Shown here one piece after another: positions 1 to 17,846 of a stretch of DNA of 25,733 nucleotides. Position 1 is the stretch's first letter, and each line of letters starts with the position of its first letter. The DNA comes from Planctomycetota bacterium (GTDB lineage Bacteria; Planctomycetota; B15-G4; JADJEK01), in the NCBI GenBank assembly GCA_044225365.1, contig JBGAIQ010000072.1:1-25733 (forward strand), given 5' to 3'. The position numbers were made by a program, and so were the translations under genes. Below the pieces are notes generated by a model. That model was not told the DNA's origin. It made no database searches and was given only the letters and a program-made list of their open reading frames with translations.

Positions 1-173
1 AGAAGATGCCACGCTGGAGCGTGGCGGTCCCGGGGAAGGGGACAAAGAAGAAGATGCCACGCTGGAGCGTGGCGGTCCCGGGGAGGAGACAAAGAAGAAG
101 ATGCCACGCTGGAGCGTGGCGGTCCCGGGGAGGAGACAAAGAAGAAGATGCCACGCTGGAGCGTGGCGGTCCC
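1..173. repeat. Tandem array of REP-like hairpin units (47-48 bp period)
   Basis: AGAAGATGCCACGCTGGAGCGTGGCGGTCCC starts at 1, 49, 96 and 143. The linkers are near-identical. Each unit contains the palindrome GCCACGCT-GG-AGCGTGGC. The array may extend beyond the window start. Confidence 0.9.
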
Positions 174-186
174 GAAGAGGTCTGCC

Positions 187-4337: not shown

Positions 4338-4557
4338 TCCGGAATCGATCTCGAGCCGATCGAACGCGAGCGCCCGCGGAGAGCGATCCGCGAGCGCTCG
4401 TTTCGTTTCCCAGCGGTCACCGATGGTCTCGTGGAGTGTCGAATGTCCCCATCCAAGTCTATATAATAGGCTCGATTACCTGGAAGGAAATTCAGCGAGT
4501 TGACTCTCGCATCCGGACCTTTTTTGGGTGCGTGATCAGGACAAGCATATAAGATCA

Positions 4558-5097
4558 ATGATAATCGATCTGATACATAGGTGCTGTGCGTCCTGGGCAC
4601 GGGACTTCGAGTTTCCAACGGGTGGCGAGGTCGCCATCCCGTCGGGGGCAGAAGCTGATTTGGTCGAAGCGATCAAGTCTGCTCTCCCTCTGCAAGAGGG
4701 GCTCGTCGCTGCTATTCGCCATGGCCTCTCCTCCCGCGACGAATACACCATGACGATGTTCGCAGTAAGATGTGCGATATTGGCGGCTCGTACCGCGAAC
4801 GCTGACTTGCTCCACGTGAGTGTAGCATCCATCATGATTCTATCGGGGCGAGTCGATTGGAGAGACACGCTGGTGGCACTATCGATGATGGAGAACTGCG
4901 CGATTCGAGTGGGTGTACAGCTTCGAGATCTCGTAAGTCTTCAAATTCACTTGGCTGCGCCTTCCGTGGTCCAGACGATTTTGCGCGGGTATTTCGATCG
5001 GTCAGAGGAAATGCGCAGAGTCATAGTGATGGGTTTCCGGTCGGTGGAAGGCGGCGACGGCCTGCGGTTTCAATCCATTCCATTTCGAACGGAGTAG
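4558..5097 (+). CDS. Hypothetical protein in a lower-GC segment
   Basis: Open frame of about 179 aa with atypical codon usage and an AT-rich upstream region (TATAAT at 4462-4467). The start is uncertain (4528 or 4558). Confidence 0.5.
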   Translation: MIIDLIHRCCASWARDFEFPTGGEVAIPSGAEADLVEAIKSALPLQEGLVAAIRHGLSSRDEYTMTMFAVRCAILAARTANADLLHVSVASIMILSGRVDWRDTLVALSMMENCAIRVGVQLRDLVSLQIHLAAPSVVQTILRGYFDRSEEMRRVIVMGFRSVEGGDGLRFQSIPFRTE

Positions 5098-5488
5098 TTG
5101 TCGATCGCGATCCGAGCACTTGTGGGATCGAGCATCGCACGGAATTGATGCGGAGATCGCGTCGACGCCCCTTCCCGAATCGGCACCCACCTCCGGCGGC
5201 CATCGAGCGCCGGGGGCCGATGCGGGCCGTGGCTGCCGTCGAGAACCTGCGAGCGAATGGGGAGGCGACAAGTCCGCGTCGCGCGGCCTGCGAAATCGTT
5301 CGTCGGACGAGTTCGGGAGCTGCGGTGTCCTCGATGAGGTCCTCGATCGCGCGCGTGGCATTCGTGATCGGAATCGCTTCGCACCATGCGCGGTCGGATT
5401 TCGGCCCATCTGAGATGCTTTCACGCGGGAGAAGTAAGCCGCGAGAAGCCTGTGTGCGGCTCCGCGTCCGCTACGATGCCACGAGCCC

Positions 5489-8400
5489 ATGAACGACGAG
5501 ACCCTGACCCCGATCGACTCCAAGCTCGAAGAGCTCGTGGCGAAGTGCCTCGAGCGCCTCGAGCGCGAGGGGGATCCGCACATCGATGAGGTGTGCAAGG
5601 ATCATCCGGAGCTGAAGGAGGCGGTCGCGCGGCGCTTCGCGATGCTGAAGCGCATCGGTCTGCTCTCGGCGTCGCAGACGGCGGGGGGCGGGCAGCCTGG
5701 TCCCGAGAAGGACTTTCCCGAGCTGCTCGGTGACTTCCGCCTGGTGCGAAGGGTCGGCGGCGGAGGAATGGGCGTCGTCTATCTCGCGAAGCAGGAATCG
5801 CTCGGCCGCGAGGTGGCGCTCAAGCTGATTCGACCCGAGCATCTCTACTTCGAAGGCGCGAAGCTGCGCTTTCGCCGCGAGGTCGAGGCGATCGCGAGCC
5901 TCAGCCACCCCGGCATCGTTCCGATCTACATGGTCGGCGAGGAGAAGGGGATCCCGTACTACGCGATGGAGCACGTCCAGGGCAGTTCGCTCTCGGAGGT
6001 GCTCGAATCGCTCCGCGGCCGCGACGTGAGCGAACTCACCGCGACCGACCTCACGAACGCGATCCAGGGCATCGATCCGATGCAGGCGATCGCGATCGGC
6101 GAGCGGCTCGGGCCGTCCTGGATCCAAGCGTGTCTGCGCGTCCTGCTCCAGGTCGCCGAGGCGCTCGCGCACGCGCACGGGCGCGGGATCATCCATCGCG
6201 ACATCAAGCCGTCGAACATCCTGCTGCGTCGCGACGGCGTGCCGGTGCTCGTCGACTTCGGACTCGCATTGCAACGCGGCGCGTCGAAGCTGACGCAGAC
6301 GGGTTCCGCGCTCGGCTCGCCGCACTACATGGCCCCGGAGATCTGGACGAGCGGCGGCAGCATCGCGGATGCGCGCAGCGACGTGTACGCGCTCGGCGTC
6401 ACGCTCTACGAGATGCTGTCGCTCATCCTCCCGTTCCGCGGGCAGTCCGAGGAGCTGATCGTGAAGGTGCTGTCGGGCGAATTCGACCCGTTGCGCCGCG
6501 CGAATCCGCTCATTCCGTGGGACGTCGAGACGGTCTGCCTCAAGGCGATGGAGGTCGATCCGAATCGCCGCTACGAGTCGGCGGCGGAGTTCGCGCACGA
6601 CCTGCGCAACTTGCTCGAGCTGCGCCCGATCCTCGCCGCGCGTCCCACGCCCTACCTGCGCGTGAAGCGGTTCGTCCAGCGGCGGCCGGGATCGGCGATG
6701 GCCGTCGTCCTCGTCTTCTTCATCACGGTAGTGTTCCCCGTGTTCTATTCCGCGGTCCTGCGCGTGACGAACGCCAAGATCGAGAAGAAGAACGTCGAAC
6801 TCGAGAACCAGACGAAGCTCGCGGTCTCGCATCGCAGCGCGACGCTCGGCGCCATCGACGTGATGATCGCGAGTCTCGCGGATCCGTCGTTGAACGAAGT
6901 GCCCGGAATCGAAAGGCTGCGCACGCGCGCCCTCGAACAGGCCGAGCAGGTGATCAAGAAGGTGACGGCCTCGGGAGAGATCGACGTCGACCTCTCGTGG
7001 CGCGTGCTCAACATCCAGTCGCGGCTGGCCCGCCTCGTCGATGAGCTCGGCGACACGCGCGGCGCCATCGATCGCGCGCAGAAGACGATCGAGGATGCGC
7101 AGCGCGTGTTCGGAAAGCGCCCGCGCGACTGGCGGCCGCGGTTCTTCATCGCCAACGAACGAAGCTTCGCGGCGACGAACCAGCACACGCTGGGCGACGA
7201 CGTCGACGCCGAGAAGGGGATCCTCGAGGCGATCGAGGATTTCAAGCAGGTCGCGATCGACTCGAAGGACTCGGTCGAACCCTTCATCGCGCTCGGGAGC
7301 GGCTACTCGACTCTCGCTTCGATCCACTTCGATCGTGGACGATTCGATGAGGGCGACAAAGCCTACGCGCAGCTCTCGGAGGTCCTGGACACGGCGCTCG
7401 CGAAATGGCCCGACGATGCGCGGCTGAACATGCGTTGGGTCGAAGCGACCTCACAGAACGCGCTCTACTCGGTTCATCGCGGCGATCTCCCCGCCGCGAA
7501 ACGCTTCCTCGATGCCGTCACCAAGAAGTTCGAAGGTCTGAAGGTGGACGACGGAGAGAACTCCGTCGATCGCGAGTTGTCCGCCGTCGTCCGTTCGAAC
7601 ATGGCCGAATGCGCGAAGGTGCTGGACGACACGAAGACCTGCGTGCATTGGCTCGACGGCGCGATCGACGATCTGAAGATCCTCGTGACCCGTTATCCCG
7701 CGCGCCCCAAGTACAAGAAGCTGCTCGCGCGCTGCCTCGGTCAGGTCGCGGAGAATCGGAACTTCCTCGAGTTCGCATCCGACGCGGAGAGGGACGCCGC
7801 ATACGTCCGCTCGCTCAGTGAGTTCGAGCAGGCGATCGAGCTGATGCACTCCCTCATCGCGGCGAAGTACGCCGACCAGGTGCTCGATTCCGACCTCTGC
7901 GCCACGCTCGGTGCCTACGGCGATTGGCTGCAGAAGGGCAAGCGCTACGAAGAGGCGGTCGCGAGATACGAAGAGGCGACGAAGATCCTCGATCGGCGCC
8001 TCGCGGCGAATCCGGACAGTCCCGAGGATCGAAGGAACATCGCCGAGAACCTCACCGGACTCGGGTTCTGTCGCAGCCTGCTCGACGAAGGCGAAGGCGC
8101 CCTCGAATCGATCGCGCGCTCGGCGAGCATCCTCACCGACAGTCACGACAAGAAGCTCCTCGCCGACTCGGAGTTCGGCGACTTGTTCGCCCGCAACCGC
8201 CTCGTTCTCGCCGATTACTATCTGAATCGCAGGGACCATCGCGAGACGCTCGCGGCGATGCTCGACCTCGAGAAGATCGATGTGCCGATCGAGCTGCGTT
8301 TCGACTGCGTTCGCAAGTTGAACTTCAGCATCGAGGACGCGTCGACGGACGGCGCCATCTCGGAGGCCGATCGCAAAGCAGCCATCGCGAAGGCCGCAGC

Positions 8401-8530
8401 GATCGCGGTGACGCATCTCGATGCGATCCTCGCGGGCGGGGGATCGGTCGACGTCTTCCGCGACGAACCCAAGTACGGCGCTTTGCGCGATACCGCCGAA
8501 TTCGCCGCGTGGGCCGAGAAGCATCCCTGA
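5489..8530 (+). CDS. Hanks-type Ser/Thr protein kinase with TM segment and TPR-like C-terminal region
   Basis: Motifs GGGGMGVVY, VALK, HRDIKPSN, DFGLA, GSPHYMAPE and SDVYALG. A hydrophobic segment (AMAVVLVFFITVVFPVFYS) is followed by helical repeats. Confidence 0.93.
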   Translation: MNDETLTPIDSKLEELVAKCLERLEREGDPHIDEVCKDHPELKEAVARRFAMLKRIGLLSASQTAGGGQPGPEKDFPELLGDFRLVRRVGGGGMGVVYLAKQESLGREVALKLIRPEHLYFEGAKLRFRREVEAIASLSHPGIVPIYMVGEEKGIPYYAMEHVQGSSLSEVLESLRGRDVSELTATDLTNAIQGIDPMQAIAIGERLGPSWIQACLRVLLQVAEALAHAHGRGIIHRDIKPSNILLRRDGVPVLVDFGLALQRGASKLTQTGSALGSPHYMAPEIWTSGGSIADARSDVYALGVTLYEMLSLILPFRGQSEELIVKVLSGEFDPLRRANPLIPWDVETVCLKAMEVDPNRRYESAAEFAHDLRNLLELRPILAARPTPYLRVKRFVQRRPGSAMAVVLVFFITVVFPVFYSAVLRVTNAKIEKKNVELENQTKLAVSHRSATLGAIDVMIASLADPSLNEVPGIERLRTRALEQAEQVIKKVTASGEIDVDLSWRVLNIQSRLARLVDELGDTRGAIDRAQKTIEDAQRVFGKRPRDWRPRFFIANERSFAATNQHTLGDDVDAEKGILEAIEDFKQVAIDSKDSVEPFIALGSGYSTLASIHFDRGRFDEGDKAYAQLSEVLDTALAKWPDDARLNMRWVEATSQNALYSVHRGDLPAAKRFLDAVTKKFEGLKVDDGENSVDRELSAVVRSNMAECAKVLDDTKTCVHWLDGAIDDLKILVTRYPARPKYKKLLARCLGQVAENRNFLEFASDAERDAAYVRSLSEFEQAIELMHSLIAAKYADQVLDSDLCATLGAYGDWLQKGKRYEEAVARYEEATKILDRRLAANPDSPEDRRNIAENLTGLGFCRSLLDEGEGALESIARSASILTDSHDKKLLADSEFGDLFARNRLVLADYYLNRRDHRETLAAMLDLEKIDVPIELRFDCVRKLNFSIEDASTDGAISEADRKAAIAKAAAIAVTHLDAILAGGGSVDVFRDEPKYGALRDTAEFAAWAEKHP

Positions 8531-8552
8531 CGCCCTAGAAGAAAGTCCTCTA

Positions 8553-8632
8553 GGACCGCCGGGCTCCAGCCCGGCATCCGAATGGACACTTCGTTCCATC
8601 CCAAAAAGCGCCGGGCTGGAGCCCGGCGGTCC
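8553..8632. repeat. REPIN/BIME-like inverted REP doublet
   Basis: Perfect 23-bp inverted repeat GGACCGCCGGGCTCCAGCCCGGC (8553-8575 and 8610-8632). Each arm is itself a hairpin, and the element is intergenic. Confidence 0.88.
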
Positions 8633-8680
8633 CGAAGCGCGAAACTTGCCGCTTCGGCGCGACTGCGTTACAACGACGCC

Positions 8681-9472
8681 ATGGACGATCGCAGGACCGA
8701 ACTCGAGCACCGCTACGGACCGCGCGTCCACGTGCTCGCCGATCCGTTCGTCTGCGGCCTCCTCGGTCGGATCGGCTCGCCCGAGGTGAAGCCACCGCTC
8801 CTGCTCGATCTCGTCCGCACGTTCTACGCGACGATGCTCGCACGAGTCGTCGCGAGCGAGTTCCCCGCGACGGAACAGGCGATCCACACGCGCATGCGCG
8901 AGCACACCGAGCGCGGCGTGTGGCGGGGCAAGGCCGTCGCGCGCGACACTCGCGTCGCGATCGCGAATGTGATGCGCGCGGGCAATCTGCCGTCGCTCAC
9001 CTGCTTCGAACGCCTGACGGCGCTCCTGGACCCCGACGGGATCCGCATCGACCACTTCTACTTCGCGCGGCGGACCGACGCGAACGGCCAGGTGATCGGC
9101 GTCGATAGCGCCGGCAGCAAGGTCGGGGGCGGCATCGACGGCGCGGTCCTGCTCATTCCCGATCCGATGGGAGCGACGGGCAGCACCACGATCGAGACGC
9201 TGCGGGCCTATTCGAAGTTGCGAGCCGGTCGGCCTTCCTCCGTCATCGCGATGCATCTCATTGTGACGCCCGAGTACATCCGACGAGTCCTCGAAGAGGC
9301 CCCGGAAGTCGTCATCTACGCGGGCCGCGTCGATCGCGGGATGTCGGATGCGAGCGTCCTCGCGACGATGCCGGGCACGCACCTCGAGCGCGAATCGGGC
9401 CTGAACGAAGTGCAGTACATCGTGCCGGGCGCCGGCGGACTCGGCGAAGTCCTCACCAACGCGTTCGTTTGA
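8681..9472 (+). CDS. upp: Uracil phosphoribosyltransferase-like protein
   Basis: PRPP-binding motif LIPDPMGATGST, VMRAG, and C-terminal LNEVQYIVPGAGGLGE (canonical LNxxGYIVPGLGDAGD). A divergent member of the family. Confidence 0.75.
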   Translation: MDDRRTELEHRYGPRVHVLADPFVCGLLGRIGSPEVKPPLLLDLVRTFYATMLARVVASEFPATEQAIHTRMREHTERGVWRGKAVARDTRVAIANVMRAGNLPSLTCFERLTALLDPDGIRIDHFYFARRTDANGQVIGVDSAGSKVGGGIDGAVLLIPDPMGATGSTTIETLRAYSKLRAGRPSSVIAMHLIVTPEYIRRVLEEAPEVVIYAGRVDRGMSDASVLATMPGTHLERESGLNEVQYIVPGAGGLGEVLTNAFV

Positions 9473-9506
9473 ACGCGTTCGAGCCTCGCCCGAATCCCCC
9501 AACCTC

Positions 9507-10499
9507 ATGAGTCGACCCGTCCCCTCCGTTCCTTCCGATCCGCCTGAACCGACGGCCGCGAGCGGACTCGCACTGCTTCGTCACCTCGAGATCACGCGCC
9601 TGCGTTTCGTGGCGCGCGCCATGGACGCGATCGATCTTCGTGAGTTCCCCGGCAGTGCGCTGCGGGGCGGGCTGCTCGTCGCGCTGTTCGATGTCGGTTG
9701 CGTCGCGGTCCATCGCCAGTGCGAGGAGTGCGCTTTTCTCGCCGACTGCGCGGTTCCGCGCGTGCTCGGCCGGGAGTCGCCGCGAACGGATCGCGGGAAC
9801 CATGGGTTCTTCACCCGTCCTTATCGGATCACCACGGCGCATGCGCCTCCGCGAATCGAGCGCGGAGCGACGTTCGAATTCGGAATCGATCTCTTCGGCG
9901 AAGCCGCGGAATTCGCTGCGCTCCTCCGCACGGCGGTGATTCGGCTCGGCGAGCGGGGGCTGGGGCGGCGCCGCAGCCGGTTCGATGTGGAATCCGGGGG
10001 AGATTTCGAGGCCTGCGCGCCACGGCTCATGGGCGACGAGATCGCGGCTCGAATCCGGGATCTGCCGACCGATCGGCTCCTGCTTTGCTTCGATTCGCCG
10101 CTTCGTTTGCAGGCAAGAGGGCACGCCCTCACCGAATTTTCCTTTCTCTCTCTCATGGCCAACCTGTTGCGGAGAGCGTCCGGTCTGATGGAATCGCACG
10201 GACGGGCACAGGTCGAGGCTTTGGCCCGGCCGCTCCTGGAGCGAGCTTCTCGAGTCGTGGTGATCGCTGCGTCGTGGACGAAGCGCGATCAGGTACGATT
10301 CTCCTCGCGTCAAGGTCGTGCGATGAATCTCCACGGTGCGCAAGGCCAGGTCGAAGTCGCGGGCGATCTCGCGGCTTTCGTGCCCTGGCTCGCGTTCGGT
10401 GAGATCGCGGGCGCCGGCAAGGGCACGACCTTCGGCCACGGATCGATGCGAGTGCTCGCGACGAACCCTCCGCCCGCGATGGGCGAATCGAGTGGATAG
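9507..10499 (+). CDS. cas6: CRISPR pre-crRNA processing endoribonuclease Cas6 (Cys4-containing type)
   Basis: N-terminal FPGSALRGG and C-x6-C-x2-C-x5-C cluster, plus FDSPLRL and RFSSRQGRAMNLHG. C-terminal G-rich loop GAGKGTTFGHG. Confidence 0.88.
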   Translation: MSRPVPSVPSDPPEPTAASGLALLRHLEITRLRFVARAMDAIDLREFPGSALRGGLLVALFDVGCVAVHRQCEECAFLADCAVPRVLGRESPRTDRGNHGFFTRPYRITTAHAPPRIERGATFEFGIDLFGEAAEFAALLRTAVIRLGERGLGRRRSRFDVESGGDFEACAPRLMGDEIAARIRDLPTDRLLLCFDSPLRLQARGHALTEFSFLSLMANLLRRASGLMESHGRAQVEALARPLLERASRVVVIAASWTKRDQVRFSSRQGRAMNLHGAQGQVEVAGDLAAFVPWLAFGEIAGAGKGTTFGHGSMRVLATNPPPAMGESSG

Positions 10500-10531
10500 A
10501 CCTGCAGAGTAGAACGGAACGGTACAAGAGC

Positions 10532-11806
10532 TTGAATCGCGACGAACTCCGTCAGGATGTGACGAATCGACTCGACCGTGCTGCGGCGCTCGCCGGAGGC
10601 ACGGGAGAGGATCGCATCCTCGTCGGGGCCCGGGTTCATGGCGGACTCGAATACGCCTGTTCGACGACGTCGCGATCGAGCGATACCTCGGCGATGGAAG
10701 CCTCGGGAACGGTGGCCGAGTTCCATGGTCGTGCCGACGCGCTCGCCCGCGCCGTTGCGGCCGCGGCCCAGGCGCTCGGCACGGCAGCGTTCGGCTCTTC
10801 GCATCCGCTCGACTCCTTCCTCCGCATCGGCAACGACCGCTTCGTCGCCGTGATGCCGAGTTCGACCGAAGTCGACGCGCGCCTCACCGAGACGCGAGCG
10901 ACGATCGAAGCGGAATGGCTCGGCTGCTTCGAAGGCGCGGTCGATATCGCAATCGCCTGGGTGCGCACGACGACCAGCGAATTGAAGAACGCCGCCACGG
11001 CGGCGCGACTCGAGGAAGGCCTCACCCGTCGCGAGCGCACGCCCGCGCTCGACGCCCTCAGCGGATCGAATCCGTTCGGTCCCTTCGCCAGCGCGCCGCC
11101 GGTTCCTGGCCAGCGCGAGGCATTCGAGACGAAGCCTCTCGGTGTGCTGGTCTCGCGTCGCCTGCATCGAAGCGTGCCGGGCGACGACCTCGTCGCGGTC
11201 CTCGCCTCCGATCTCGAACGCGTGGAGTGGATCCGCTCGCGCGACGACCTCGCGTCGCTCGCGTCGGCCGCAGGGGACGTGGCGGTGGGGCCGATCTCCT
11301 CCGTCCTTGCGCTCGCTGCCACACCCTTCGAGTTCGAGAGCGCGATCGCGATCGAGGGTGCGCGCGGCGAGCGCGGCCTCGAAGGCGCGCTCGCTCGGGC
11401 CGTCACGGCGCCGAGCGGTCGTTTCCATGTCTTCGGCGTCCGCGCCCAACGCGCGCGCTTCGCCGAGGGCTTCGCACTCGGCAAGGATCTCGCGCCGCTC
11501 GCGCGCTGCGACGAATCCGCGATGCGGGGTCTCCTCGAAGTGGCGATCGCCCTCGACGAAGGAATGGACCGCGCCCCTCTGATGTTGCTGTCGCGCTGGC
11601 GCGCAAGGGCCCACGCCCTCGCCGCTCGCCTCGGCATGAACGAACGCGCGCTGCGGCACGTCACGGACGATGCATCGTCCGAGCGCCGCGCGCTGAAGAC
11701 CCTCATCGGTGAATTCCCGCGCTGGTTCGATACCGGCGCGGCGCGAATTCCCCTCTACTGCGCGTTGCTCGAAGCGGGCGTCGCGACGGAGGCATCCTCG
11801 GCATGA
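10532..11806 (+). CDS. cas10: Highly degenerate, truncated Cas10/Csm1-like large subunit (424 aa)
   Basis: Sits between cas6 and csm2 with an ATGA overlap. Palm1-like segments ILVGARVHG..FHGRA..SFLRIGNDRFVAVMP..WLGCFEGAVDIAIAWV and Palm2-like segments VAVLASDLE..SAAGDVAVGP..SAIAI..RFHVFG. No HD domain and no GGDD. The TTG start is uncertain. Confidence 0.65.
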   Translation: MNRDELRQDVTNRLDRAAALAGGTGEDRILVGARVHGGLEYACSTTSRSSDTSAMEASGTVAEFHGRADALARAVAAAAQALGTAAFGSSHPLDSFLRIGNDRFVAVMPSSTEVDARLTETRATIEAEWLGCFEGAVDIAIAWVRTTTSELKNAATAARLEEGLTRRERTPALDALSGSNPFGPFASAPPVPGQREAFETKPLGVLVSRRLHRSVPGDDLVAVLASDLERVEWIRSRDDLASLASAAGDVAVGPISSVLALAATPFEFESAIAIEGARGERGLEGALARAVTAPSGRFHVFGVRAQRARFAEGFALGKDLAPLARCDESAMRGLLEVAIALDEGMDRAPLMLLSRWRARAHALAARLGMNERALRHVTDDASSERRALKTLIGEFPRWFDTGAARIPLYCALLEAGVATEASSA

Positions 11807-12507
11807 ACGAGAACGAAACCAACCCCGAAGCGACGTCGAATCCGATGTCCGAAGGATCGCCGCCGCCGGCTCCCCCGGCTGCTCAGGCCCCAGGCGAGGC
11901 CGGATCCAACACAGGTAACGAGGGCGCCGGCCCGGGCGAGAGTCCGAACTCCGCCGGTGGCGACGCAGCCGCGGGCGGCGAACAGCAAGGCCGCGGCGAG
12001 CGCCGCCGCAAGGGCAAGCGCGATCGCGGCAAGGGCGGCGGTCACGGCCCCGGTGGGCAAGGCGGTCCCGGTCGTCCCCAGAACCAAGGCCATCCGCGCG
12101 ACGGGGGTCATGGCGGCGGACATCGCTACGTCGAGGACCGCATCGACATCGACGCGGAGCAGCTCGCCCGCGAGACGCGCTACATCACGGCGGACCGCAT
12201 CCGTCCGATCGCGTTCCTCACCGCGCAGGTTCGGCGGTTGCTCGGATCGCCCGATTCGCACGATCGGCGCGAGGCGCGGCGTTGCCTCGTGCTCTTCAAG
12301 TCGCGCGTCGCGTTCATGGCGGGTCGCGAGACCGGCCGCGAGCGCAGCGGCTTCGTGAAGATCCGCGACTTCATGCTGCGCGGCATCGAACAGGTCACGC
12401 GCGATCGCGAGACGCTCGACCCGCTCCAGGTGCGCAACTTCCTCGATCAAGTCGACGCCTACGTCGGCTACCACCGTTTCCACTGCGACGACCGTCGCCG
12501 CGATTGA
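11803..12507 (+). CDS. csm2: Type III-A small subunit Csm2 (Cas11) with ~105-aa disordered N-terminal extension
   Basis: TAQVRRLL (cf. TSQLRKFY), LFKSRVAFMAGR (cf. LKPKLAYAxGR) and FLDQVDAYVGYHRF (cf. FFEAIVAYHKY). Confidence 0.8.
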   Translation: MNENETNPEATSNPMSEGSPPPAPPAAQAPGEAGSNTGNEGAGPGESPNSAGGDAAAGGEQQGRGERRRKGKRDRGKGGGHGPGGQGGPGRPQNQGHPRDGGHGGGHRYVEDRIDIDAEQLARETRYITADRIRPIAFLTAQVRRLLGSPDSHDRREARRCLVLFKSRVAFMAGRETGRERSGFVKIRDFMLRGIEQVTRDRETLDPLQVRNFLDQVDAYVGYHRFHCDDRRRD

Positions 12508-12524
12508 ACGAGAAGACGACGAAC

Positions 12525-13337
12525 ATGACGAATACGACGAACGACGCAGCGCGCGGCATCTCCTTCAAGGGTCAGGTCGTGATCACCGGCGTGATCGAGT
12601 GCCTGTCCGGCCTCCACGTGGGCGGCAATCGCGACGCCTTGAACCTCTCCGGCGTCGAACTCCCGGTCGCGCGCGACCCGGCGACGCGCATGCCGATCAT
12701 CCCGGGTTCGAGCCTCAAGGGGCGCATGCGCGCCTTGCTCGAAGTGCTGCGCGGGAAAGTCCGCTTCGAGCGCGGTCAGGTCCGCGGTTCCGATGGCGAA
12801 CCCGATTCGATCGACCTGCTGTTCGGTACCTCCGGCAATCGCCGCGGCGGGCCGACCCGCCTCGTCGTGCGCGACGCGACGGCGCTGGCGAGCGATTCGC
12901 GCGAATCGACCGTCGCGTTCTGGGCGGCTCTCGACAGCGAGGGGCTCGGCACCGAGGTGAAGGCCGAAGCGGCGCTCAACCGCGTCACGGCTGCCGCGCA
13001 GCCGCGCCAGGTCGAGCGCGTCGTCGCGGGCTCGCGCTTCGAGTTCGAACTCGTGCTCTCGGTGTTCGATCAGCGGGAGGGCGAGGAACTCCTGCTCAAG
13101 GACGTCGTGATCGCGCTCCAACTCCTCGAGGACAGTTATCTCGGCGGCCACGGCACTCGCGGTTACGGCCGCGTGCGGATCCTCCTGCGCGAGAATCCCG
13201 CGATCGCGACCGCTCGCGATTACGAATCGGGCCGTCGCAAGACGAAGCCGACGGGCGACCTCAAGGCCCTCTCCGATATCGACGCGGACGGATGGGTCGC
13301 CGCGGCGAAGCAGGCGTTCTCCCAGAGCCCAACGTGA
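12525..13337 (+). CDS. csm3: Type III-A backbone RAMP Csm3 (Cas7 group)
   Basis: SGLHVGG..PVARDPATRMPIIPGSSLKGRMRALLE, GPTRLVVRDA, TEVKAEAALNR, PRQVERV and LLEDSYLGGHGTRGYGRV. Confidence 0.95.
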   Translation: MTNTTNDAARGISFKGQVVITGVIECLSGLHVGGNRDALNLSGVELPVARDPATRMPIIPGSSLKGRMRALLEVLRGKVRFERGQVRGSDGEPDSIDLLFGTSGNRRGGPTRLVVRDATALASDSRESTVAFWAALDSEGLGTEVKAEAALNRVTAAAQPRQVERVVAGSRFEFELVLSVFDQREGEELLLKDVVIALQLLEDSYLGGHGTRGYGRVRILLRENPAIATARDYESGRRKTKPTGDLKALSDIDADGWVAAAKQAFSQSPT

Positions 13338-14230
13338 AGCAGATCTACCTGAAGCCGCGGGGCGCGTTTCGCGCGCCCCCGCGTTCCGACACGCTCTTCG
13401 GCCTCATCGCGCATGCGATTCGCGCGGTGTACGGACGGGCGTCCGTCGAACGCTTCCTCGCTCCCACGTTCGAAGAGCCGGCGGGAACGCCGCTCTACGT
13501 GACGTCGGCGTTTCCGTATCTCGAGACGGAGCGAGGTCGGCTTCACTTCTTTCCGGCGCCGTTGTCGCACGGCCCCGCGGGCTACGTCGAGGACGCCGAG
13601 TTCCTCGCTTTCGTGACCGGACAGAAGGCGACGGCGGACATCTCGCCCCTCGCCGAAGGAATGCTGCGAATCGATCGCCAGGGGCACAGCCCCGTGCAGA
13701 CGCTCGCGCGACCGGGAGGCTTCTTCTTCCTCGCCGCGGGCTCGGGTGAGCACTACCTCGAAGCGGCCCTCAAGTATCTCGAACGCTCGGGCTTCGGCGG
13801 CGGAGCATCGCGCGGCTTGTCGCAATTCGATGCCGAGCTCGTCGACACCGAATTCGTCCGTCTCGCCCAGCCGGGCGAATACGGAGTGCTGCTCTCGCTC
13901 ATGCATCCCACCGCGGAGGAGCGCGAGCTGATCGCGCGCGAGGCTCGGGCCGATAGCCGCATCGCGTACGCGATCGAGCGGCGTCAGGGCTATGCCAGCG
14001 CGGCGTTCGTCGATGACGTCGCGGCTGCCGGCAGTGGCCGGAAGTCGGCGCTCGCGATGCTGGCCGAGGGCTCCGTGATCCCGCGCGCCACCTCGCGCGC
14101 CTGCGGCGCGGCGCCGGTCGTCGGCACGGCTCGCGATTCCGCCTCCGAATTCAAGATCGTGCAGTCCGGATTCGGTTTCCTCGTCCCGATCGTCGCGGCC
14201 AAGGTCTCGGCGTCGGAGGCCGTCGCATGA
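13334..14230 (+). CDS. csm4: Type III-A RAMP Csm4 (Cas5 group)
   Basis: GTG start overlaps the csm3 stop (GTGA). Motifs PRSDTLFGLI, YVTSAFPY, FFPAP, G-loop GFGGGASRG and MLAEGSV. Confidence 0.88.
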   Translation: MKQIYLKPRGAFRAPPRSDTLFGLIAHAIRAVYGRASVERFLAPTFEEPAGTPLYVTSAFPYLETERGRLHFFPAPLSHGPAGYVEDAEFLAFVTGQKATADISPLAEGMLRIDRQGHSPVQTLARPGGFFFLAAGSGEHYLEAALKYLERSGFGGGASRGLSQFDAELVDTEFVRLAQPGEYGVLLSLMHPTAEERELIAREARADSRIAYAIERRQGYASAAFVDDVAAAGSGRKSALAMLAEGSVIPRATSRACGAAPVVGTARDSASEFKIVQSGFGFLVPIVAAKVSASEAVA

Positions 14231-16038
14231 AGTTCGTCCTGCGCGTCGAATCTCCGCTGCACCTCGGAATCGGTCAGGACCAGGTCCTGTCGTGGCTCGA
14301 CTATCACCTCGAGGGCAAGATCGTCCACGTGCTCGATTGGGAGAAGGTCTTCGCCGCGGCCAGCGGTGACGACGAAGGCAAGCGCGACGCCATCCTCGAG
14401 AAGTTCACGGCCTGGTGCGACAAGACCACGCGCGCGCTCGACGACGCCGCGGAAGCCGCGCAGAAAGCGCCCTCGCGCGAACGCGCCGAGATCCTGCGAC
14501 GGGCTCGCGATGAATCGAGTCCCGCGCGATTCTTGCGCGACGACCTGTCCGACGACGGCCTCGCGAAGCGCCTGCGCGACGGCGAATTCGATCGCTACAA
14601 GGCCGAGTTCAGCGGCGGGCGCCTCGATCGCCGTCTCGAGATCCGGCGCACCGCGAAGGACGCGCTCGGAAACCCGACCATCCCGGGTAGCGCGATTCGC
14701 GGCCAGATTCGCACGGCGCTGCTGCATTCCGCGCTCGCGACGGGCGGCGCGGAGATCGTCGACAAGGTGATGATGGGCAGTCGTGACGCCGAGGGCTGGA
14801 AGAAGAGCCTCGACGATGCGACGCCGGGTCGCTCGCGCTTCCTGTTCGGCGATGCGCTGGAACGCGCCGTGCTGCGTCCGGGCTCGCGAATGGACGATCC
14901 GCGATTCGACCTGATGCGTCTCCTGCGCATCTCCGATCCCGTGAAGTCGCGCGCGACGCTCATCGTGGTGCGCGAGAGTGCATTCCTCATCAAGCCCGGA
15001 ACCCTCAACCCGCTCGCGCCGGTGGTCTGCGAAGCGATCGCCGAGGGCTCGGAGTTCGAGTTCGAGTTCCGCGCCGACGCGGGGCTCGTGAAGGGCGTCG
15101 CGGCGGCGGACGGCGGGACGCACGCGTTCGTCAGCGACGAGTTCTGGTCGCAGTTCACACGCGTCTTCGGCGTGACGCGCGACGAGGCGAGGACGCTCGA
15201 CGAAGCCGCGCTCGAGGAGCGCATGCTCTCCTCCATCGAGGTCGCATTCGGCAGCCGGTTCAGCGCGATCTCGACTCGCGAACGCGCGTGGTTCGATCGC
15301 GCCGGTGCTCCGGCGGACGCACCGCTGAGGCTGTTCCACGAGGGCCTCGGCAAGATCGAAGGCCGCGTGCCCCTGCGCCTCGGTCTTGGCGCGGGATTGC
15401 ACGGCACGACGCTCGTCCTCGCCCTCGACTCGGACGCCGCCCTCGCCGAGCCGCTCTCGCGCGCTCTTGCGCGCGCCGGACTCGGCCTCGATCCGCGAAA
15501 GCGCCGCGAGCGCGCCGAGCGCGAGAAGATCGCGATCGAGAAGGCTCGGCGCGAAAACTCGCAAGGCGGCAGGGGCGGTCCCGGATTGCGCCCGGAACTC
15601 CTCGCCGAGAAGCGCGATCCCAAGCAATTGCCGGTGTCGCGCCATTTCACGATGGACGGTCCGCTGCCCGACCTCTTCACCGGGTGCGTGACGTTTGCCC
15701 GCGGCGAGATCTCGGGCGAAGCGATCGCACGCGAAGCCACGCTCGCCGCGAAGACTCGCGCATTGCGCGCGCCGCAGCCGGAACCCGAGCGCCGCCCCGA
15801 CCGTCGCCCCGACAACCGTGCCGACGACCGTCGTGGCGGGCCGCCGGGTCAGGGAGGCCGCCGTGACGACCGGGGTCGGCGCCCGGACCGTGATGACCGT
15901 CGAGACGATCGCGGACCGCCGCGTCGCGACTCCGGGCCCGATCGCCGACCGAAGGGCCCGCCGCCCAAGCCGCTTCCCGATCGTCCGGCGAACGAGGACG
16001 AGATCAAGCGTCTGCTCGATCGCTTCGGGCGGCGTTGA
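14227..16038 (+). CDS. csm5: Type III-A RAMP Csm5 (Cas7 group) with R/D/G/P-rich C-terminal tail
   Basis: ATGA overlap with csm4. Motifs ESPLHLGIG, PTIPGSAIRGQIRTALL, DLMRLLRISD and LRLGLGAGLHGTT. Confidence 0.88.
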   Translation: MKFVLRVESPLHLGIGQDQVLSWLDYHLEGKIVHVLDWEKVFAAASGDDEGKRDAILEKFTAWCDKTTRALDDAAEAAQKAPSRERAEILRRARDESSPARFLRDDLSDDGLAKRLRDGEFDRYKAEFSGGRLDRRLEIRRTAKDALGNPTIPGSAIRGQIRTALLHSALATGGAEIVDKVMMGSRDAEGWKKSLDDATPGRSRFLFGDALERAVLRPGSRMDDPRFDLMRLLRISDPVKSRATLIVVRESAFLIKPGTLNPLAPVVCEAIAEGSEFEFEFRADAGLVKGVAAADGGTHAFVSDEFWSQFTRVFGVTRDEARTLDEAALEERMLSSIEVAFGSRFSAISTRERAWFDRAGAPADAPLRLFHEGLGKIEGRVPLRLGLGAGLHGTTLVLALDSDAALAEPLSRALARAGLGLDPRKRRERAEREKIAIEKARRENSQGGRGGPGLRPELLAEKRDPKQLPVSRHFTMDGPLPDLFTGCVTFARGEISGEAIAREATLAAKTRALRAPQPEPERRPDRRPDNRADDRRGGPPGQGGRRDDRGRRPDRDDRRDDRGPPRRDSGPDRRPKGPPPKPLPDRPANEDEIKRLLDRFGRR

Positions 16039-16733
16039 GCGCGAGTTCCCTACCGATGCTCGTCCTCTTCGACATCGATGGCACGATCCTCGTCTCCGGC
16101 GGCGTGGGCGTGAAGGCGTTCCTGTCGAGCTGCACCGAAGTGTTCCAGATGGAAGCGGCGGACGATCGCAAGCGCTTCTCGGGCGGCATGGACCCGCTGA
16201 TCTTCCGCGACCTCTGCGCGCTCCATGGAATCGAGGATTGGCGGCGGCATCACGACGGATTCCGCGAGCGCTACACCCAGCGCCTGCGCGAGCACCTCGC
16301 CCCTCCCGGCATCGTGAAGATCCTTCCGGGCGTGCGGGAGCTCGTCGATGCGATCGATTCCGATCCGCGGTCGTCGCTCGGACTCGTGACGGGGAACTAC
16401 CCCGAGACGGGGCGCTTCAAGCTCGAGCAGACGGGCATCGATCCCGATCGATTCGAAGTCGCCGCGTGGGGCGTCGACGGCGATCATCGGCGCGATCTGC
16501 CGCGCGTCGCGATGGAGCGATTCGCCGCTCGCCGGGGCTCGCCGATCGATCCGTCCAAAGTCGTCGTCATCGGCGACACGCCGCACGACGTCGACTGCGC
16601 GAAGCACAACGGCTGTCGCGCGCTCGGGGTCGGCACCGGGCTCTTTACTCCCGCGGAGCTGAGGGAGTGCGGCGCCGATCTCGCGGTCGAGAATCTCGCC
16701 GATACGAAGGCGATCCTCGACTGGCTGTTCTGA
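16035..16733 (+). CDS. HAD-superfamily phosphatase
   Basis: Motif I LFDIDGT, LGLVTGN and motif IV VIGDTPHD. The start is either TTG 16035 (overlapping the csm5 stop) or ATG 16056. Confidence 0.9.
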   Translation: MSASSLPMLVLFDIDGTILVSGGVGVKAFLSSCTEVFQMEAADDRKRFSGGMDPLIFRDLCALHGIEDWRRHHDGFRERYTQRLREHLAPPGIVKILPGVRELVDAIDSDPRSSLGLVTGNYPETGRFKLEQTGIDPDRFEVAAWGVDGDHRRDLPRVAMERFAARRGSPIDPSKVVVIGDTPHDVDCAKHNGCRALGVGTGLFTPAELRECGADLAVENLADTKAILDWLF

Positions 16734-16734
16734 G

Positions 16735-17757
16735 TCAGTCGAAGCGCGAAGCGCAAGCCGCGAAGACGCGATCGACTTCGATCCTGCGCATGCAGCGATG
16801 ATCGATCGGGCAGACGCGCAGGAGACACGGCGAGCATTCGACCGGCTCACGCAGGAGCGTGTGGATCGAGCCGTAGGGCGGCGTCGTCACGGGATCCGTG
16901 GAACCGAAGATCGCGACGACGGGCGTGCCGACGGCGGAAGCGACGTGCATCGCGCCGGTGTCGTTCGAGACGGCGAATCGACAAGCCTCGAGAACGCCCG
17001 CGAGCTCGAGGATCGTCGTCTTGCCCGAGAGGTCGAGGACCTGATCCTTGTCGATCTCGTGACGGATGCGGTCGCACACGTCGCGATCGCCCGGACCGCC
17101 GAGCAGGACGAGTTGCGCGTTCAGATCGAGGAGGAGTCGCTTGCCGAGGGCGACGTAGCGCTCCTCCGGCCACTGCTTCGCGGTGCCGTACTGCGCTCCA
17201 GGGATGATGCCGACGATCCGATCCGCCCGCTTCTCGAGGAGCGGAGCGAGGTGCACCTTGGCGCGCGCCTTCGCATCGTCCGGCACCACGATTCGCGGCG
17301 TGATCGGCTTCGAATCGATGCCGAGGGCTCCGAGAAGGTGATGGTAGTAGTGGACGCGATGGATCTTGAGGAGCGAGGGATCGCGCGGGATCGGATCGGT
17401 GAGGAGCAGATCGCGGCCCGAGGCGCGGTACCCGATGCGGCGCACCGAGTCGGAGATCAGCGCCGTCCAGGCCGCTCCGAACGAGCGGGGGAGCACGAGC
17501 GCGACGTCCGCGGAGAACGCCCGCAGCCGCGCGACGAAGTCGGTGAAACCGACGACGCGCCGCATCCCGTCTTGCCGCTTGTAGACGATCACTTCGCTCG
17601 CCGCGTTCGACGCCCGATACAGATCGGCGACCGTGCCGCGGGCCACCACGCCGACTGCGGCGTCCGGATAGGCCGTGCGCAGGCCATACAGCGTCGGCAG
17701 TGACATCACTGCGTCGCCCAGCCAGCTCGGACTGAAGAAGAGGAACCTGCCCGCCAT
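16735..17757 (-). CDS. waaF: Lipopolysaccharide heptosyltransferase II (GT9)
   Basis: PSWLGDAVMSLP, PGAQYGTAKQWP, VSNDTGAMHVASAVGTPVVAIFGST and CSPCLLRVCP. Confidence 0.9.
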   Translation of the reverse strand: MAGRFLFFSPSWLGDAVMSLPTLYGLRTAYPDAAVGVVARGTVADLYRASNAASEVIVYKRQDGMRRVVGFTDFVARLRAFSADVALVLPRSFGAAWTALISDSVRRIGYRASGRDLLLTDPIPRDPSLLKIHRVHYYHHLLGALGIDSKPITPRIVVPDDAKARAKVHLAPLLEKRADRIVGIIPGAQYGTAKQWPEERYVALGKRLLLDLNAQLVLLGGPGDRDVCDRIRHEIDKDQVLDLSGKTTILELAGVLEACRFAVSNDTGAMHVASAVGTPVVAIFGSTDPVTTPPYGSIHTLLREPVECSPCLLRVCPIDHRCMRRIEVDRVFAACASRFD

Positions 17758-17846
17758 GTTCAATCTTGCGATTATAAGCCGCTCGAAAGCTGGATCCGCC
17801 TCTCCGCACACGAATTCGACGACGACCCCGTAGAATCCGCGTCCCC

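Follow-up and report, generated by a model that had tools for sequence, protein, structure and literature searches.

Genes at the locus

The window, by which we mean the whole stretch of 25,733 nucleotides analysed here, carries an operon in the order cas6-cas10-csm2-csm3-csm4-csm5, in which stop and start codons overlap, and every gene given below with coordinates lies on the forward strand. The first gene (9507..10499) encodes Cas6, the crRNA-processing endoribonuclease (PADLOC Cas6, E 2.4e-67; Pfam CRISPR_Cas6, E 3.4e-14). It is followed by a reduced cas10/csm1 (10532..11806), which begins with TTG and encodes a protein of 424 aa made up of Palm1, a linker, Palm2 and D4. The stop codon of cas10 is overlapped by the ATG of csm2 (cas11; 11803..12507; Pfam Csm2_III-A, E 1.2e-5; PADLOC Csm2, E 1.2e-7). 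The Cas7 backbone RNase Csm3 (270 aa; 12525..13337), which is concealed within ORF 12282-13337 and shares its frame, was recognised by the PADLOC Csm3 model (E 8e-58), by a solved Csm3 (E 8.4e-40) and, in the genome search, by Pfam RAMPs (E 2.7e-17). Its stop codon overlaps the GTG start of csm4 (cas5; 13334..14230; 298 aa; NCBIfam cas5_csm4, E 2.6e-24, above the cut-off). Reading ORF 12599-14230 as a Csm4 of 543 aa is an artefact, as csm3 occupies another frame there (12525-13337) and csm4 runs from 13334. The last gene, csm5 (14227..16038; 603 aa; NCBIfam Csm5, E 1.5e-16, above the cut-off; PADLOC Csm5, E 4.8e-20), specifies a tail of about 100 residues rich in Arg, Asp and Pro. With csm2, csm3, csm4, csm5 and cas6 all beside cas10, the module is one of subtype III-A.

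Three further genes adjoin the operon. A HAD-family hydrolase gene (16035..16733; Pfam HAD_2, E 2.4e-13) has a start that overlaps the csm5 stop, and a gene for a UPRTase-like phosphoribosyltransferase (8582..9472; Pfam UPRTase, E 1.2e-12) lies directly upstream of cas6. Upstream of the latter by 52 nt is a gene for a Ser/Thr kinase of 1013 aa with TPR repeats (5489..8530; Pfam Pkinase, E 7.8e-40), which matches the PD-T4-6 and mad6 defence-kinase models of PADLOC. The catalytic domains of Cas10 might have been traded for one of these partners, which the binding of target RNA would switch on, in the manner in which Cas7-11 recruits a TPR-protease. The UPRTase-like protein is the candidate accessory factor that this reading possibly offers: its gene adjoins cas6 in five of the nine loci that show the upstream side, and its PRPP-loop stretch aligns to a solved UPRTase. 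The protein scores 55 bits against NCBIfam upp, where the cut-off is 208. In the Atlas, however, it belongs to a general UPRTase-family cluster with no stated CRISPR link. Nor are the other two partners conserved beside the locus: at the corresponding place in related loci the HAD gene gave no tblastn match, and the kinase gave only generic kinase matches elsewhere. We consider such an exchange of effectors quite unlikely.

The operon had been described in the earlier note as free of a CARF effector, and no CARF or SAVED domain was detected among its genes with Pfam, NCBIfam or PADLOC. The whole genome was also searched for cOA-sensing effectors with Pfam PF09659 and PF09651, for which the controls were silent. 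A gene for an RtcR regulator, whose N-terminal domain we take to be CARF-like, lies about 7 kb downstream of the operon on the opposite strand. RtcR was rejected as a linked CARF protein, being absent from the checked stretch of the contig of one relative (G004) beyond the locus. A scan of positions 4200-18000 for promoters and terminators returned sites no commoner than in shuffled sequence. The stretch 4337-5489 has a GC content of 0.58 and lacks repeats of note.

A strongly reduced Cas10 without its catalytic modules

The public gene call on the same DNA (P0002) starts at Met55 and gives a product of 370 aa. We prefer the 424-aa form because homologues of 422-442 aa align to it from its residue 2 and because the first Palm1 strand, placed at residues 27-36 with high confidence in the AlphaFold model, precedes that methionine. 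Codon 10, a GTG, is a possible alternative start. At 424 aa the protein is, as first described, roughly half of a typical Csm1; the solved chains to which it was compared have about 650-780 residues.

Scans of the 424-aa protein against Pfam and PHROG matched no family. The NCBIfam Csm1 model TIGR02578 gave 11.5 bits against a cut-off of 170 (E 0.083) and the PADLOC Cas10 model an E of 0.07, both at the level of chance, and profile matches of this single sequence are, on such values, unusable by themselves. A phmmer search of 1.84 billion representatives, by comparison, recovered 15 relatives at E<=1e-3; at this same threshold, Cas10 models were matched by nine of the 15 in PADLOC and by nine in NCBIfam. 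The source names returned for two family members were both 'hypothetical protein'. A profile built from the family aligned to solved Csm1 with an E of 1.5e-12, covering Palm1 and Palm2.

The AlphaFold model of the protein has a pLDDT of 86.9 and a pTM of 0.84. Foldseek returned 55 matches to it at E<=0.001 (best E 4e-8), and all 49 of the matches listed were Csm1 or Cmr2. With VIA-align, all 50 matches listed were Cas10 chains; the best (Z 20.0, rmsd 4.1 A, 343 residues aligned) placed residues 4-418 of the model on residues 184-805 of a Csm1 chain. The structural comparison that the earlier note had called for thus finds the Palm fold of Cas10, at an identity to solved Cas10 chains of 8-16%. 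Bridging relatives, family profile and predicted structure together settle the homology, and the product of ORF 10532-11806 is confirmed as a real but strongly reduced Cas10/Csm1; for the 424-aa protein itself the assignment depends on the intermediates and on a structure that is predicted.

In the model, the protein consists of Palm1, then a short linker, Palm2 and a helical D4. Palm1 comprises about residues 1-150 (10532..10981), a region that the family profile pairs with residues 186-353 of Csm1. It is modelled with strands at 27-36, 96-99, 103-109 and 138-147 and helices at 61-87 and 112-133, and its hairpin loop is G100-N101-D102 within IGNDRF. Region 151-202 contains only two short helices in the model and includes a conserved linker motif, RRxxTPxLDAL...GPF (residues 166-188; 11027..11095), that stands where the Zn finger and D2 domain would be and is a predicted Csm4 contact. 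Among homologues R166, R167, P171, L173, D174, L176, G183, P184 and F185 of this motif are invariant. Palm2, catalytically degenerate (residues 203-305; 11138..11446), has modelled strands at 203-210, 241-244, 249-254 and 270-277 and helices at 220-234, 255-263 and 280-292. The D4 helical domain (modelled helices within residues 307-414; 11450..11773) shows the strongest conservation in the family, with the invariant blocks LSRWRA.AHA and EFP.WFD.GAAR.PL, and the VIA alignment extends through it to the Csm1 C-terminus.

The losses are of whole domains as well as of single residues. The protein starts at Palm1 and has no HD domain, as the earlier note had it, and its alignments begin at about residues 108-200 of Csm1. 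A four-Cys Zn finger after Palm1 is a typical feature of Cas10/Csm1; here no CxxC was seen at first reading, and the four cysteines of the protein (C43, C132, C325 and C410) include none in a CxxC arrangement and none that is invariant among close homologues. The earlier note had also held that the helices between the Palm2 motifs were largely deleted. This was mistaken: the Palm2 helices are kept, and the deletion is that of the D2 domain between the two Palms.

The loop that replaces GGDD was assigned correctly to SAAGDVAVGP, but its coordinates need correction, since residues 245-254 correspond to 11264-11293 and the position given before, 11267, is one codon late. SAAG itself occupies residues 245-248 (11264..11275), as placed by the profile alignment to Csm1 and by the model. 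In the alignment of the profile to solved Csm1, the family stretch 'aasgdgvlavGp' lies against YSGGDDVFVVGA, and the row of the 424-aa protein in the family alignment sets S245-A246-A247-G248 under G-G-D-D. In the model SAAGDVAVGP forms part of a Palm2 hairpin, beta2-loop-beta3, with SAAG between strands 241-244 and 249-254. The choice of VAVLASDLE as the 'LxxDxD' strand did not hold, as residues 221-229 sit in the predicted helix 220-234. Palm2 in fact opens with the strand LGVLVSRR (203-210), and neither Asp nor Glu occurs anywhere in residues 203-217. Loss of the cyclase motif, as concluded before, thus follows on different grounds.

Could the Palm pair still be an enzyme, keeping nucleotide-binding or a non-canonical transferase activity through other residues? 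Loss of the canonical residues may be compatible with such a non-canonical activity. The model retains both Palm folds with high confidence, and in the close clade two aspartates, D219 and D102 of the Palm1 loop, do not vary. Against this, the loop has no acidic pair and the first Palm2 strand no acid, D249 beside the loop is not conserved, and in the family alignment D219 falls at the start of helix A and not at the DxD site. We regard a persisting enzyme as very improbable.

These losses differ among relatives. An Asp at position 3 of the loop is present in five of the seven members of the clade of the 424-aa protein, SAAG being one of two loops there without it. Of the 16 aligned family members whose sequence spans the loop, three (P0012, P0013 and P0014) have an acidic pair in it. 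The lineage is therefore not uniformly cyclase-dead. Longer relatives of 563-711 aa (P0009-P0011, P0014, P0015 and P0017; E 2e-20 to 1.5e-8) were also found, and the longest, P0010 (711 aa), aligned to full-length Csm1 over chain residues 1-758 (Z 30.4, 589 aligned). Because this relative aligns from residue 1 of Csm1, HD and D2 are absent from the 424-aa protein and not from the whole lineage. The N-terminal LLRExGR of the long forms may resemble the HD motif. In a search for an HD remnant, the profile of the long forms aligned no earlier than Csm1 residue 138, and in it the 'DH' of Csm1 ISLYDHMR pairs with 'Dv'. In a tree the short forms of Cas10 occupy three places and seem to have arisen more than once.

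Distribution, selection and CRISPR arrays

Among 61 genomes searched, the Cas10 family turned up within a single bacterial family, where 8 of 11 other genomes carry it, and in none of the 49 genomes outside. An alignment search with Cas10 of the genome and metagenome contigs returned no relative, and the related loci were recovered by an alignment search with Csm3. Gene order was identical in all 10 related loci that span the cas10 position to csm5, an eleventh showing the upstream end. A 301-aa ORF, an ABC ATPase gene or both follow csm5 in the window and in four related loci (L013, L022, L027 and L030), and these common downstream genes suggest vertical descent at one chromosomal site.

Differences between strains were examined within cas10, and 25 substitutions were listed from four DNA runs of three studies. 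Third codon positions accounted for 20 of them, first positions for three and second positions for two. No gap in cas10 was seen among the contigs spanning part of the gene; the only rows with an indel were two side matches of 34 bases. No RNA run was listed as carrying this DNA. The gene is maintained under purifying selection.

A module without function, on its way out in this genome, is an alternative on which this evidence bears. In the Csm3 of the window a Glu (Glu45) stands at the position of the catalytic Asp, which is kept in four of four relatives; GGDD has become SAAG, one of only two loops in its clade without an Asp; and no array, cas1 or cas2 was found. Decay is, however, poorly reconciled with six cas ORFs that are all intact and translationally coupled, with the predominance of third-position differences and the gapless gene-spanning pieces, with a fold predicted at high confidence, and with a Csm4-contact motif and a D4 that are invariant among homologues. 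We consider a relic unlikely.

CRISPR arrays were sought at several levels. None was present in the window or in 16 related loci, and none was detected by an exact 20-mer scan of the 6.53-Mb assembly, which is 94% complete, so that absence is unproven. The scan flagged 29 regions; seven and the window's own were read, and the other 21 were judged from their seed words. Those read were rejected as arrays: they were either palindromic REP-like elements in tandem, whose 'spacers' were themselves repeated, or tandem repeats rich in GC. Neither cas1 nor cas2 was found in this 94% complete genome. CRISPR arrays and a gene for a Cas4-Cas1 fusion occur elsewhere in two genomes of the same bacterial family, G003 and G007, the former also having cas2. 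One repeat of their arrays ends ATTGAAGC, and the array repeats could not be matched anywhere in this genome, even with up to 7 mismatches allowed.

A III-A complex kept vertically throughout the family, without array, adaptation genes or signalling and with its Cas10 whittled to a scaffold independently in more than one branch, could have been exapted for a host function. It would then be a long-kept chromosomal module outside adaptive immunity that serves to bind or trim RNAs, those of the host or others, directed by guides from elsewhere than a local CRISPR array. The confinement to one bacterial family, the suggested descent at one site, the lack of an array in any locus and of cas1 and cas2 in the genome, and the purifying selection on cas10 are all in keeping with this. 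On the other hand, arrays and a Cas4-Cas1 fusion exist elsewhere in G003 and G007, and ordinary use of arrays in trans therefore suffices for the lineage. Metagenome bins, moreover, are often without CRISPR arrays. A candidate for a non-CRISPR guide was not found around the loci either, where conserved non-coding sequence had nothing in common with the window. Exaptation appears rather unlikely to us.

A probable scaffold for the Csm complex

Co-folding of Cas10 with Csm4 gave a score of 0.85 against 0.24 for the best of three controls, although solved Csm1-Csm4 complexes exist and likeness to them may explain the pass. Of 80 solved complexes 58 reached this mark, as did 2 of 110 mismatched pairs; these counts hold only roughly here, where our own alignments were used. 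The runs agreed in at least 70% of contacts, with a pLDDT of at least 81 for the partner, and the interface comprised residues 166, 169-174, 176-178 and 181-188. The co-fold supports a model in which Csm4 is bound through the conserved linker.

The reduced Cas10 is thus most probably a scaffold-only large subunit of a type III-A effector, without enzymatic output. We infer this, and the inability to make cOA, because the catalytic residues are lost and the co-fold with Csm4 is supported. The structural core of Palm1, Palm2 and D4 would have been kept for building the effector, and the loss of the HD nuclease domain, Zn finger, D2 and the metal-binding acids of the cyclase would leave Cas10 with no enzymatic output of its own. 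The linker RRxxTPxLDAL...GPF and the Palm2 face would hold Csm4, and D4 would begin the Csm2 filament and face the target RNA. A putative Cas6-processed crRNA with Csm2, Csm3, Csm4 and Csm5 would complete the complex on this scaffold. Its sole remaining output would be crRNA-guided RNA binding and cleavage by Csm3, with neither cyclic oligoadenylate nor DNA cutting. As the catalytic Asp of Csm3 is replaced by Glu in this strain, RNA cleavage may be weakened.

Compared with the canonical III-A Cas10/Csm1 (6kc0, 9ash_A and 6o7h_A), the protein superposes over the Palm1-Palm2-D4 core and its gene likewise lies between cas6 and csm2, but it has 424 aa in place of about 650-780, lacks HD, the CxxC Zn finger and D2, and carries SAAG for GGDD. 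The longer relatives of the lineage have the operon, the linker motif and D4 as the 424-aa protein does. P0010, unlike it, keeps the HD-domain and D2 regions, and most of the longer relatives are still without GGDD. Cas8 of type I and Csf1 of type IV are non-enzymatic large subunits that seat Cas5 and the small-subunit filament, and in them a clear double-Palm fold is no longer evident. The scaffold role proposed here would be alike, whereas the 424-aa protein is plainly recognisable from its structure as a Cas10 and is encoded within an operon of type III.

Type III CRISPR systems have Cas10 as their signature enzyme. A Cas10-related protein, mCpol, works outside a Csm complex. The mCpol of Panoptes is described as a 'miniature CRISPR-Cas10 enzyme' that acts by oligonucleotide signalling (PMC12657230). 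Both proteins are small and related to Cas10, but the one described here lacks a cyclase site and is encoded inside a csm operon.

Other reduced type III systems are outlined in the 2025 classification paper (PMC12669027), which predicts an active cyclase for about 97% of Cas10 proteins and states that the inactive Cas10 it describes in III-G and III-H retain an HD nuclease. These two subtypes are given there as having an inactivated cyclase, no cOA-sensing ancillary genes and no adaptation module, and as products of reductive evolution, with an apparently active HD nuclease, a Cas7 without its catalytic Asp and predicted DNA cutting; in III-H a Cas11-like part takes the place of the Cas10 C-terminal domain (PMC12669027). 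On that outline, the loss of the cyclase, the lack of cOA-sensing genes and of an adaptation module, and the reduction itself recur in our locus, which is unlike III-G and III-H in that the HD domain is absent, csm2 is separate and the Csm3 Asp is kept in all four relatives. For III-I the same paper describes a Cas10 that has diverged extremely, is recognisable by structure alone and has no cyclase function; it lacks the N-terminal Palm and is paired with a III-D-derived fused Cas7-11i (PMC12669027). Our protein resembles it as a diverged, structure-recognised Cas10 without cyclase function, and differs in having both Palm folds and separate III-A-like csm3, csm4 and csm5 genes. The literature searched yielded no account of this lineage, or of a III-A operon whose Csm1 is HD-less and cyclase-dead, though the supplements of classification papers may list it.

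The locus joins a full Csm backbone in a III-A-type operon to a Cas10 stripped of all its catalytic modules. The 424-aa core and its predicted Csm4-binding linker may serve as a guide to trimming Cas10 in engineered RNA-targeting Csm complexes. Within the family, the longer relatives show intermediate steps and so provide a natural series for the minimal part of Cas10 that a type III complex needs, a series that also bears on how the complex may function when Csm3 alone can act.

Identity and extent of the cas10 gene

The cas10 open reading frame (10532-11806, plus strand) comprises 424 codons from a TTG start, and a public gene call on the same DNA (P0002) starts at Met55, for a product of 370 aa. 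The evidence favours the long form because homologues of 422-442 aa can be aligned from residue 2 onward and the first Palm1 strand is predicted at residues 27-36; codon 10, GTG, is a possible alternative start. An overlap between the cas10 stop and the start codon of the following gene (ATG, 11803) speaks for translational coupling.

The sequence by itself says little about identity. Alone, it matched no Pfam or PHROG family and scored poorly against the NCBIfam Csm1 model (E 0.083; 11.5 bits, cut-off 170) and the PADLOC Cas10 model (E 0.07); the source names retrieved for two family members were both 'hypothetical protein'. Three independent lines, from relatives, profile and structure, settle the protein as Cas10. 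A phmmer search of 1.84 billion representative proteins returned 15 matches at E≤1e-3, with 12 at E≤1e-10 and five at E≤1e-30. Nine of these 15 relatives matched Cas10 models at E≤1e-3 in PADLOC and nine in NCBIfam, all under the curated cut-offs (best P0012, 1.4e-14), and the 426-aa relative P0008 (E 1e-39) carries YSGGDG, a stretch matched by Cmr2 and Cas10 models. The profile of a 17-sequence family alignment matched solved Csm1 chains at E 1.5e-12, separately on Palm1 (Csm1 186-353) and Palm2. An AlphaFold2 model from the same alignment (pLDDT 86.9, pTM 0.84) was compared with the PDB by Foldseek, and the reduced Cas10 fold proposed in the earlier note was recovered: there were 55 matches at E≤0.001, the best 49 of which were all Csm1 or Cmr2 (best E 4e-8; TM-score on query 0.41-0.61 for these 49). 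With VIA-align, 343 residues were aligned to 6kc0 (Z 20.0, rmsd 4.1 Å), and all 50 matches listed were Cas10 of III-A, III-B or III-D.

Close strains were represented by contigs from four DNA runs of three studies, some at low depth. These contigs were ungapped over cas10 (longest 1042, 734, 686 and 541 bases), and indels inside the gene occurred only where other contigs gave two side matches of 34 bases. At least 25 substitutions were counted in 10532-11806, 20 at codon position 3, three at position 1 and two at position 2, and four consecutive position-3 changes run across the SAAG-D-V codons (11272, 11275, 11278 and 11281); outside this count, 19 more differences lie over the 2.2-kb compared stretch. 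Such a distribution is characteristic of purifying selection on a protein encoded in this frame.

Domain anatomy and lost catalytic sites

In the AlphaFold2 model, Palm1 is built of strands 27-36, 96-99, 103-109 and 138-147 with helices 61-87 and 112-133, and is joined by a linker (151-202; two short helices plus a stretch of low confidence) to Palm2, which has strands 203-210, 241-244, 249-254 and 270-277 and helices 220-234, 255-263 and 280-292. A helical D4 domain follows (307-414), and between Palm1 and Palm2 the model lacks a D2 domain. The HD domain is absent, as had been read from the sequence, since structural alignments begin only at Csm1 residues ~108-200. Cas10 normally carries a Zn finger. 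The four Cys of this protein are neither in CxxC nor invariant within the close clade, and it therefore lacks a Zn finger of the usual kind, again in agreement with that reading.

When the family profile was aligned to Csm1, its consensus 'aasgdgvlavGp' lay beneath YSGGDDVFVVGA, placing S245-A246-A247-G248 under G-G-D-D (via the protein's own row in the alignment), in the loop that joins strands 241-244 and 249-254. The earlier note had correctly recognised this loop as SAAGDVAVGP (245-254), with a start one codon late; the true span is 11264-11293. Residues 203-217 (LGVLVSRRLHRSVPG), which form the first Palm2 strand and following loop, contain no Asp or Glu; the counterpart in the relative P0013 is IDDLDG. 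With GGDD changed to SAAG and no acid in 203-217, both cyclase metal-binding sites are gone. Two details of the earlier interpretation have to be revised: VAVLASDLE (221-229), taken for the LxxDxD strand, sits in helix 220-234, and the Palm2 helices thought to be deleted are kept, the missing parts being the D2 domain and the Zn-finger region.

Operon, neighbouring genes and guides

On the plus strand, cas6 (9507-10499), cas10, csm2 (11803-12507), csm3 (12525-13337), csm4 (13334-14230) and csm5 (14227-16038) form a III-A-type module. The longest frame there, 12599-14230, would encode a '543-aa Csm4', and this was rejected: its first half is false, as csm3 overlaps it in a different frame and csm4 starts with GTG at 13334, overlapping the csm3 stop. 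A Pfam RAMPs search of the genome gave a full-length match in the csm3 frame at 12594-13178 (E 2.7e-17), and RAMP model matches in this assembly were confined to the window. The csm3 product, 270 aa from the ATG at 12525, also matched PADLOC Csm3 (E 8e-58) and solved Csm3 (E 8.4e-40), and no other gene of the module is as well conserved as csm3 (58-61% identity between relatives and the window). A longest-ORF reading of 12282-14230 would overlook it.

The residue mutated to Ala in 6o7h_C (GGIANPV vs GGIDNPV) is the catalytic Asp of solved Csm3. At this position the window Csm3 has Glu (residue 45, 12657-12659; SGVELPVARDP), whereas Asp is kept in all four relatives compared (GGHDLPVARDP and similar); Csm3 cleavage may thus be weakened in the window strain. 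Elsewhere in the module, csm2 of other strains has 9-nt in-frame insertions at 11950 and 12051, both within its poorly conserved N-terminal half. The last ~100 residues of Csm5 (15740-16038) are an Arg/Asp/Pro-rich low-complexity tail, which is variable, as tblastn matches in several relatives end at about residue 499-526.

Upstream of cas6 lies a divergent UPRTase-like gene (8582-9472, plus strand; 296 aa), which can be aligned to solved UPRTase over its PRPP-loop stretch. It directly precedes cas6 in five of the nine loci showing that side (the window, L012, L027, L030 and L031), and no second copy was found in the assembly by tblastn (E≤1e-5). In another locus (L009:6229-8697), an 822-aa ORF without Pfam, PADLOC or PHROG match takes the place directly upstream of cas6, with a different HAD hydrolase before it. 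The window also encodes a TPR-repeat Ser/Thr kinase of 1013 aa (5489-8530, plus strand), which reaches E values as low as 5.8e-74 with the PADLOC kinase models PD-T4-6 and mad6 and is not a conserved neighbour of the locus in relatives. The preceding stretch, 4337-5489, has a G+C of 0.58 against about 0.66; its ORFs 4528-5097 and 4857-5492 matched no family, and no repeats or conserved sequence were found in it. Downstream, the start of a HAD hydrolase gene (16035) falls on the csm5 stop. From the kinase to this hydrolase, no CARF or SAVED family was detected with Pfam, NCBIfam or PADLOC, which upholds the expectation that the operon has no CARF effector. An RtcR-type sigma-54 activator (23342-24991, minus strand; Pfam RtcR E 4e-74), whose sensor domain is presumably CARF-like, lies ~7 kb downstream of csm5. 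Its proximity looks incidental, as RtcR was not found in the examined stretch of a related contig (genome G004) beyond the locus.

No CRISPR array was found in the window, in 16 related loci including up to 10 kb of flanking DNA, or in the 6.53-Mb assembly, where an exact 20-mer scan flagged 29 regions (seven and the window's own were read, the other 21 judged by seed words). All regions read consisted of palindromic REP-like elements in tandem or of GC-rich repeats. The REP-like element (core GCCACGC-TGGA-GCGTGGC) recurs in tandem clusters at many places in the genome, often together with a second hairpin (window 1-180; on other contigs, for example, C2:76644-77250, C23:33300-33650 and C90:27987-28330); these are not CRISPR arrays, since their 'spacers' repeat. 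Cas1 occurs in two of 12 genomes of the family and, like Cas2, was not found in this one. Bins often lose CRISPR arrays and the assembly is 94% complete, so these absences are not proven. In genomes G007 (L034:935-2590) and G003 (L033:19-200, 4969-7067), a Cas4-Cas1 fusion gene with adjacent arrays lies away from the csm-locus contigs; cas2 is also present in G003, and one of the arrays consists of 23 copies of a 36-nt repeat that ends in ATTGAAGC. It is therefore plausible that the lineage uses arrays in trans and, as no effector genes were found on these short contigs, they are possible crRNA sources for the Csm module. The repeats of these arrays have no copy in the window's genome at up to 7 mismatches.

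Lineage and proposed role

Among 61 genomes searched, the family was found in the window's genome and eight of 11 others of the same family-level group, and in none of 49 outside it; related loci are annotated as Planctomycetota and Phycisphaeraceae metagenome-assembled genomes. The gene order from cas6 to csm5 was seen in all ten related loci reaching from the cas10 position to csm5 (L009, L010, L011, L013, L020, L022, L027, L029, L030 and L031), with contig ends cutting off cas6 or part of cas10; four short fragments and a distant Csm3 match (L021, 34% identity) were left out of the count. L012, an upstream end, has the UPRTase-like gene, cas6 and cas10. In L027, L030 and L031 the cas10-position gene was missed by tblastn and found by the family HMM (E 3e-41 to 4e-43); its products of ~410-416 aa begin directly at the first Palm1 strand.

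Other family members have 563-711 aa. The model of the 711-aa P0010 (pLDDT 80.5) superposes on full-length Csm1 (Z 30.4, rmsd 3.5 Å, 589 residues aligned, chain 1-758); the lineage therefore started from a complete Csm1 fold. The 'DH' of Csm1 ISLYDHMR aligns to 'Dv' in the profile of the long forms, hinting from sequence that their HD site was already inactive. The GGDD-equivalent loops of the seven window-clade members read SAAG, SADG (twice), LADA, TASG, TRDG and GGDG; an acidic pair at loop positions 3-4 is present in three of the 16 members covering the loop (P0012 GVDE, P0013 GDDD, P0014 SGDD) and lacking in 13. Short forms occupy three places in a maximum-likelihood tree of 19 sequences: the window clade (support 100/99), L027, L030 and L031 beside the 594-aa P0017/L012 (87/94), and P0012 alone. 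With a midpoint root only and moderate support, repeated loss of the N-terminal domain is likely, not proven.

Co-folding of Csm4 (11-row alignment) with Cas10 (17-sequence alignment) scored 0.85 (runs 0.85, 0.85 and 0.86), against 0.24 for the best of three controls. Of solved complexes, 58 of 80 reach this mark, as do two of 110 mismatched pairs; since custom alignments were used here, these counts apply only roughly. The runs shared at least 70% of contacts with partner pLDDT of at least 81; the score may reflect likeness to solved Csm1-Csm4 complexes rather than binding by this copy. The predicted interface on Cas10 (residues 130, 133-136, 138, 166-188 and 281-302) includes the most conserved linker motif of the family, RRxxTPxLDAL...GPF (166-188; R166, R167, P171, L173, D174, L176, G183, P184 and F185 invariant), so that conservation coincides with predicted Csm4 contact. 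The other strongly conserved block is D4.

The protein is most likely the large-subunit scaffold of a Csm complex, in which its linker and Palm2 face would seat Csm4, it would start the Csm2 filament, and D4 would face the target RNA. As it has neither HD domain nor cyclase site, no DNase or cOA output would be expected from it, and the remaining output would be crRNA-guided RNA binding and cleavage by Csm3.

According to Makarova et al. (2025, PMC12669027), activity is predicted for about 97% of Cas10 proteins; in subtype III-I, as they describe it, Cas10 is extremely diverged, lacks the N-terminal Palm and works alongside a fused Cas7-11i. Compared with that description, the window protein keeps both Palm folds and D4, and csm2 to csm5 are separate genes. 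In the type III subtype described by Altae-Tran et al. (2023, PMC10910872) the polymerase is inactive and the HD active, whereas here there is neither HD domain nor cyclase site. We found no description in the literature of an HD-less, cyclase-dead Cas10 in a III-A-type operon, and supplementary tables may contain one. With this reduced Cas10, a reductive trend already known for type III systems is carried further, and no new principle is involved.
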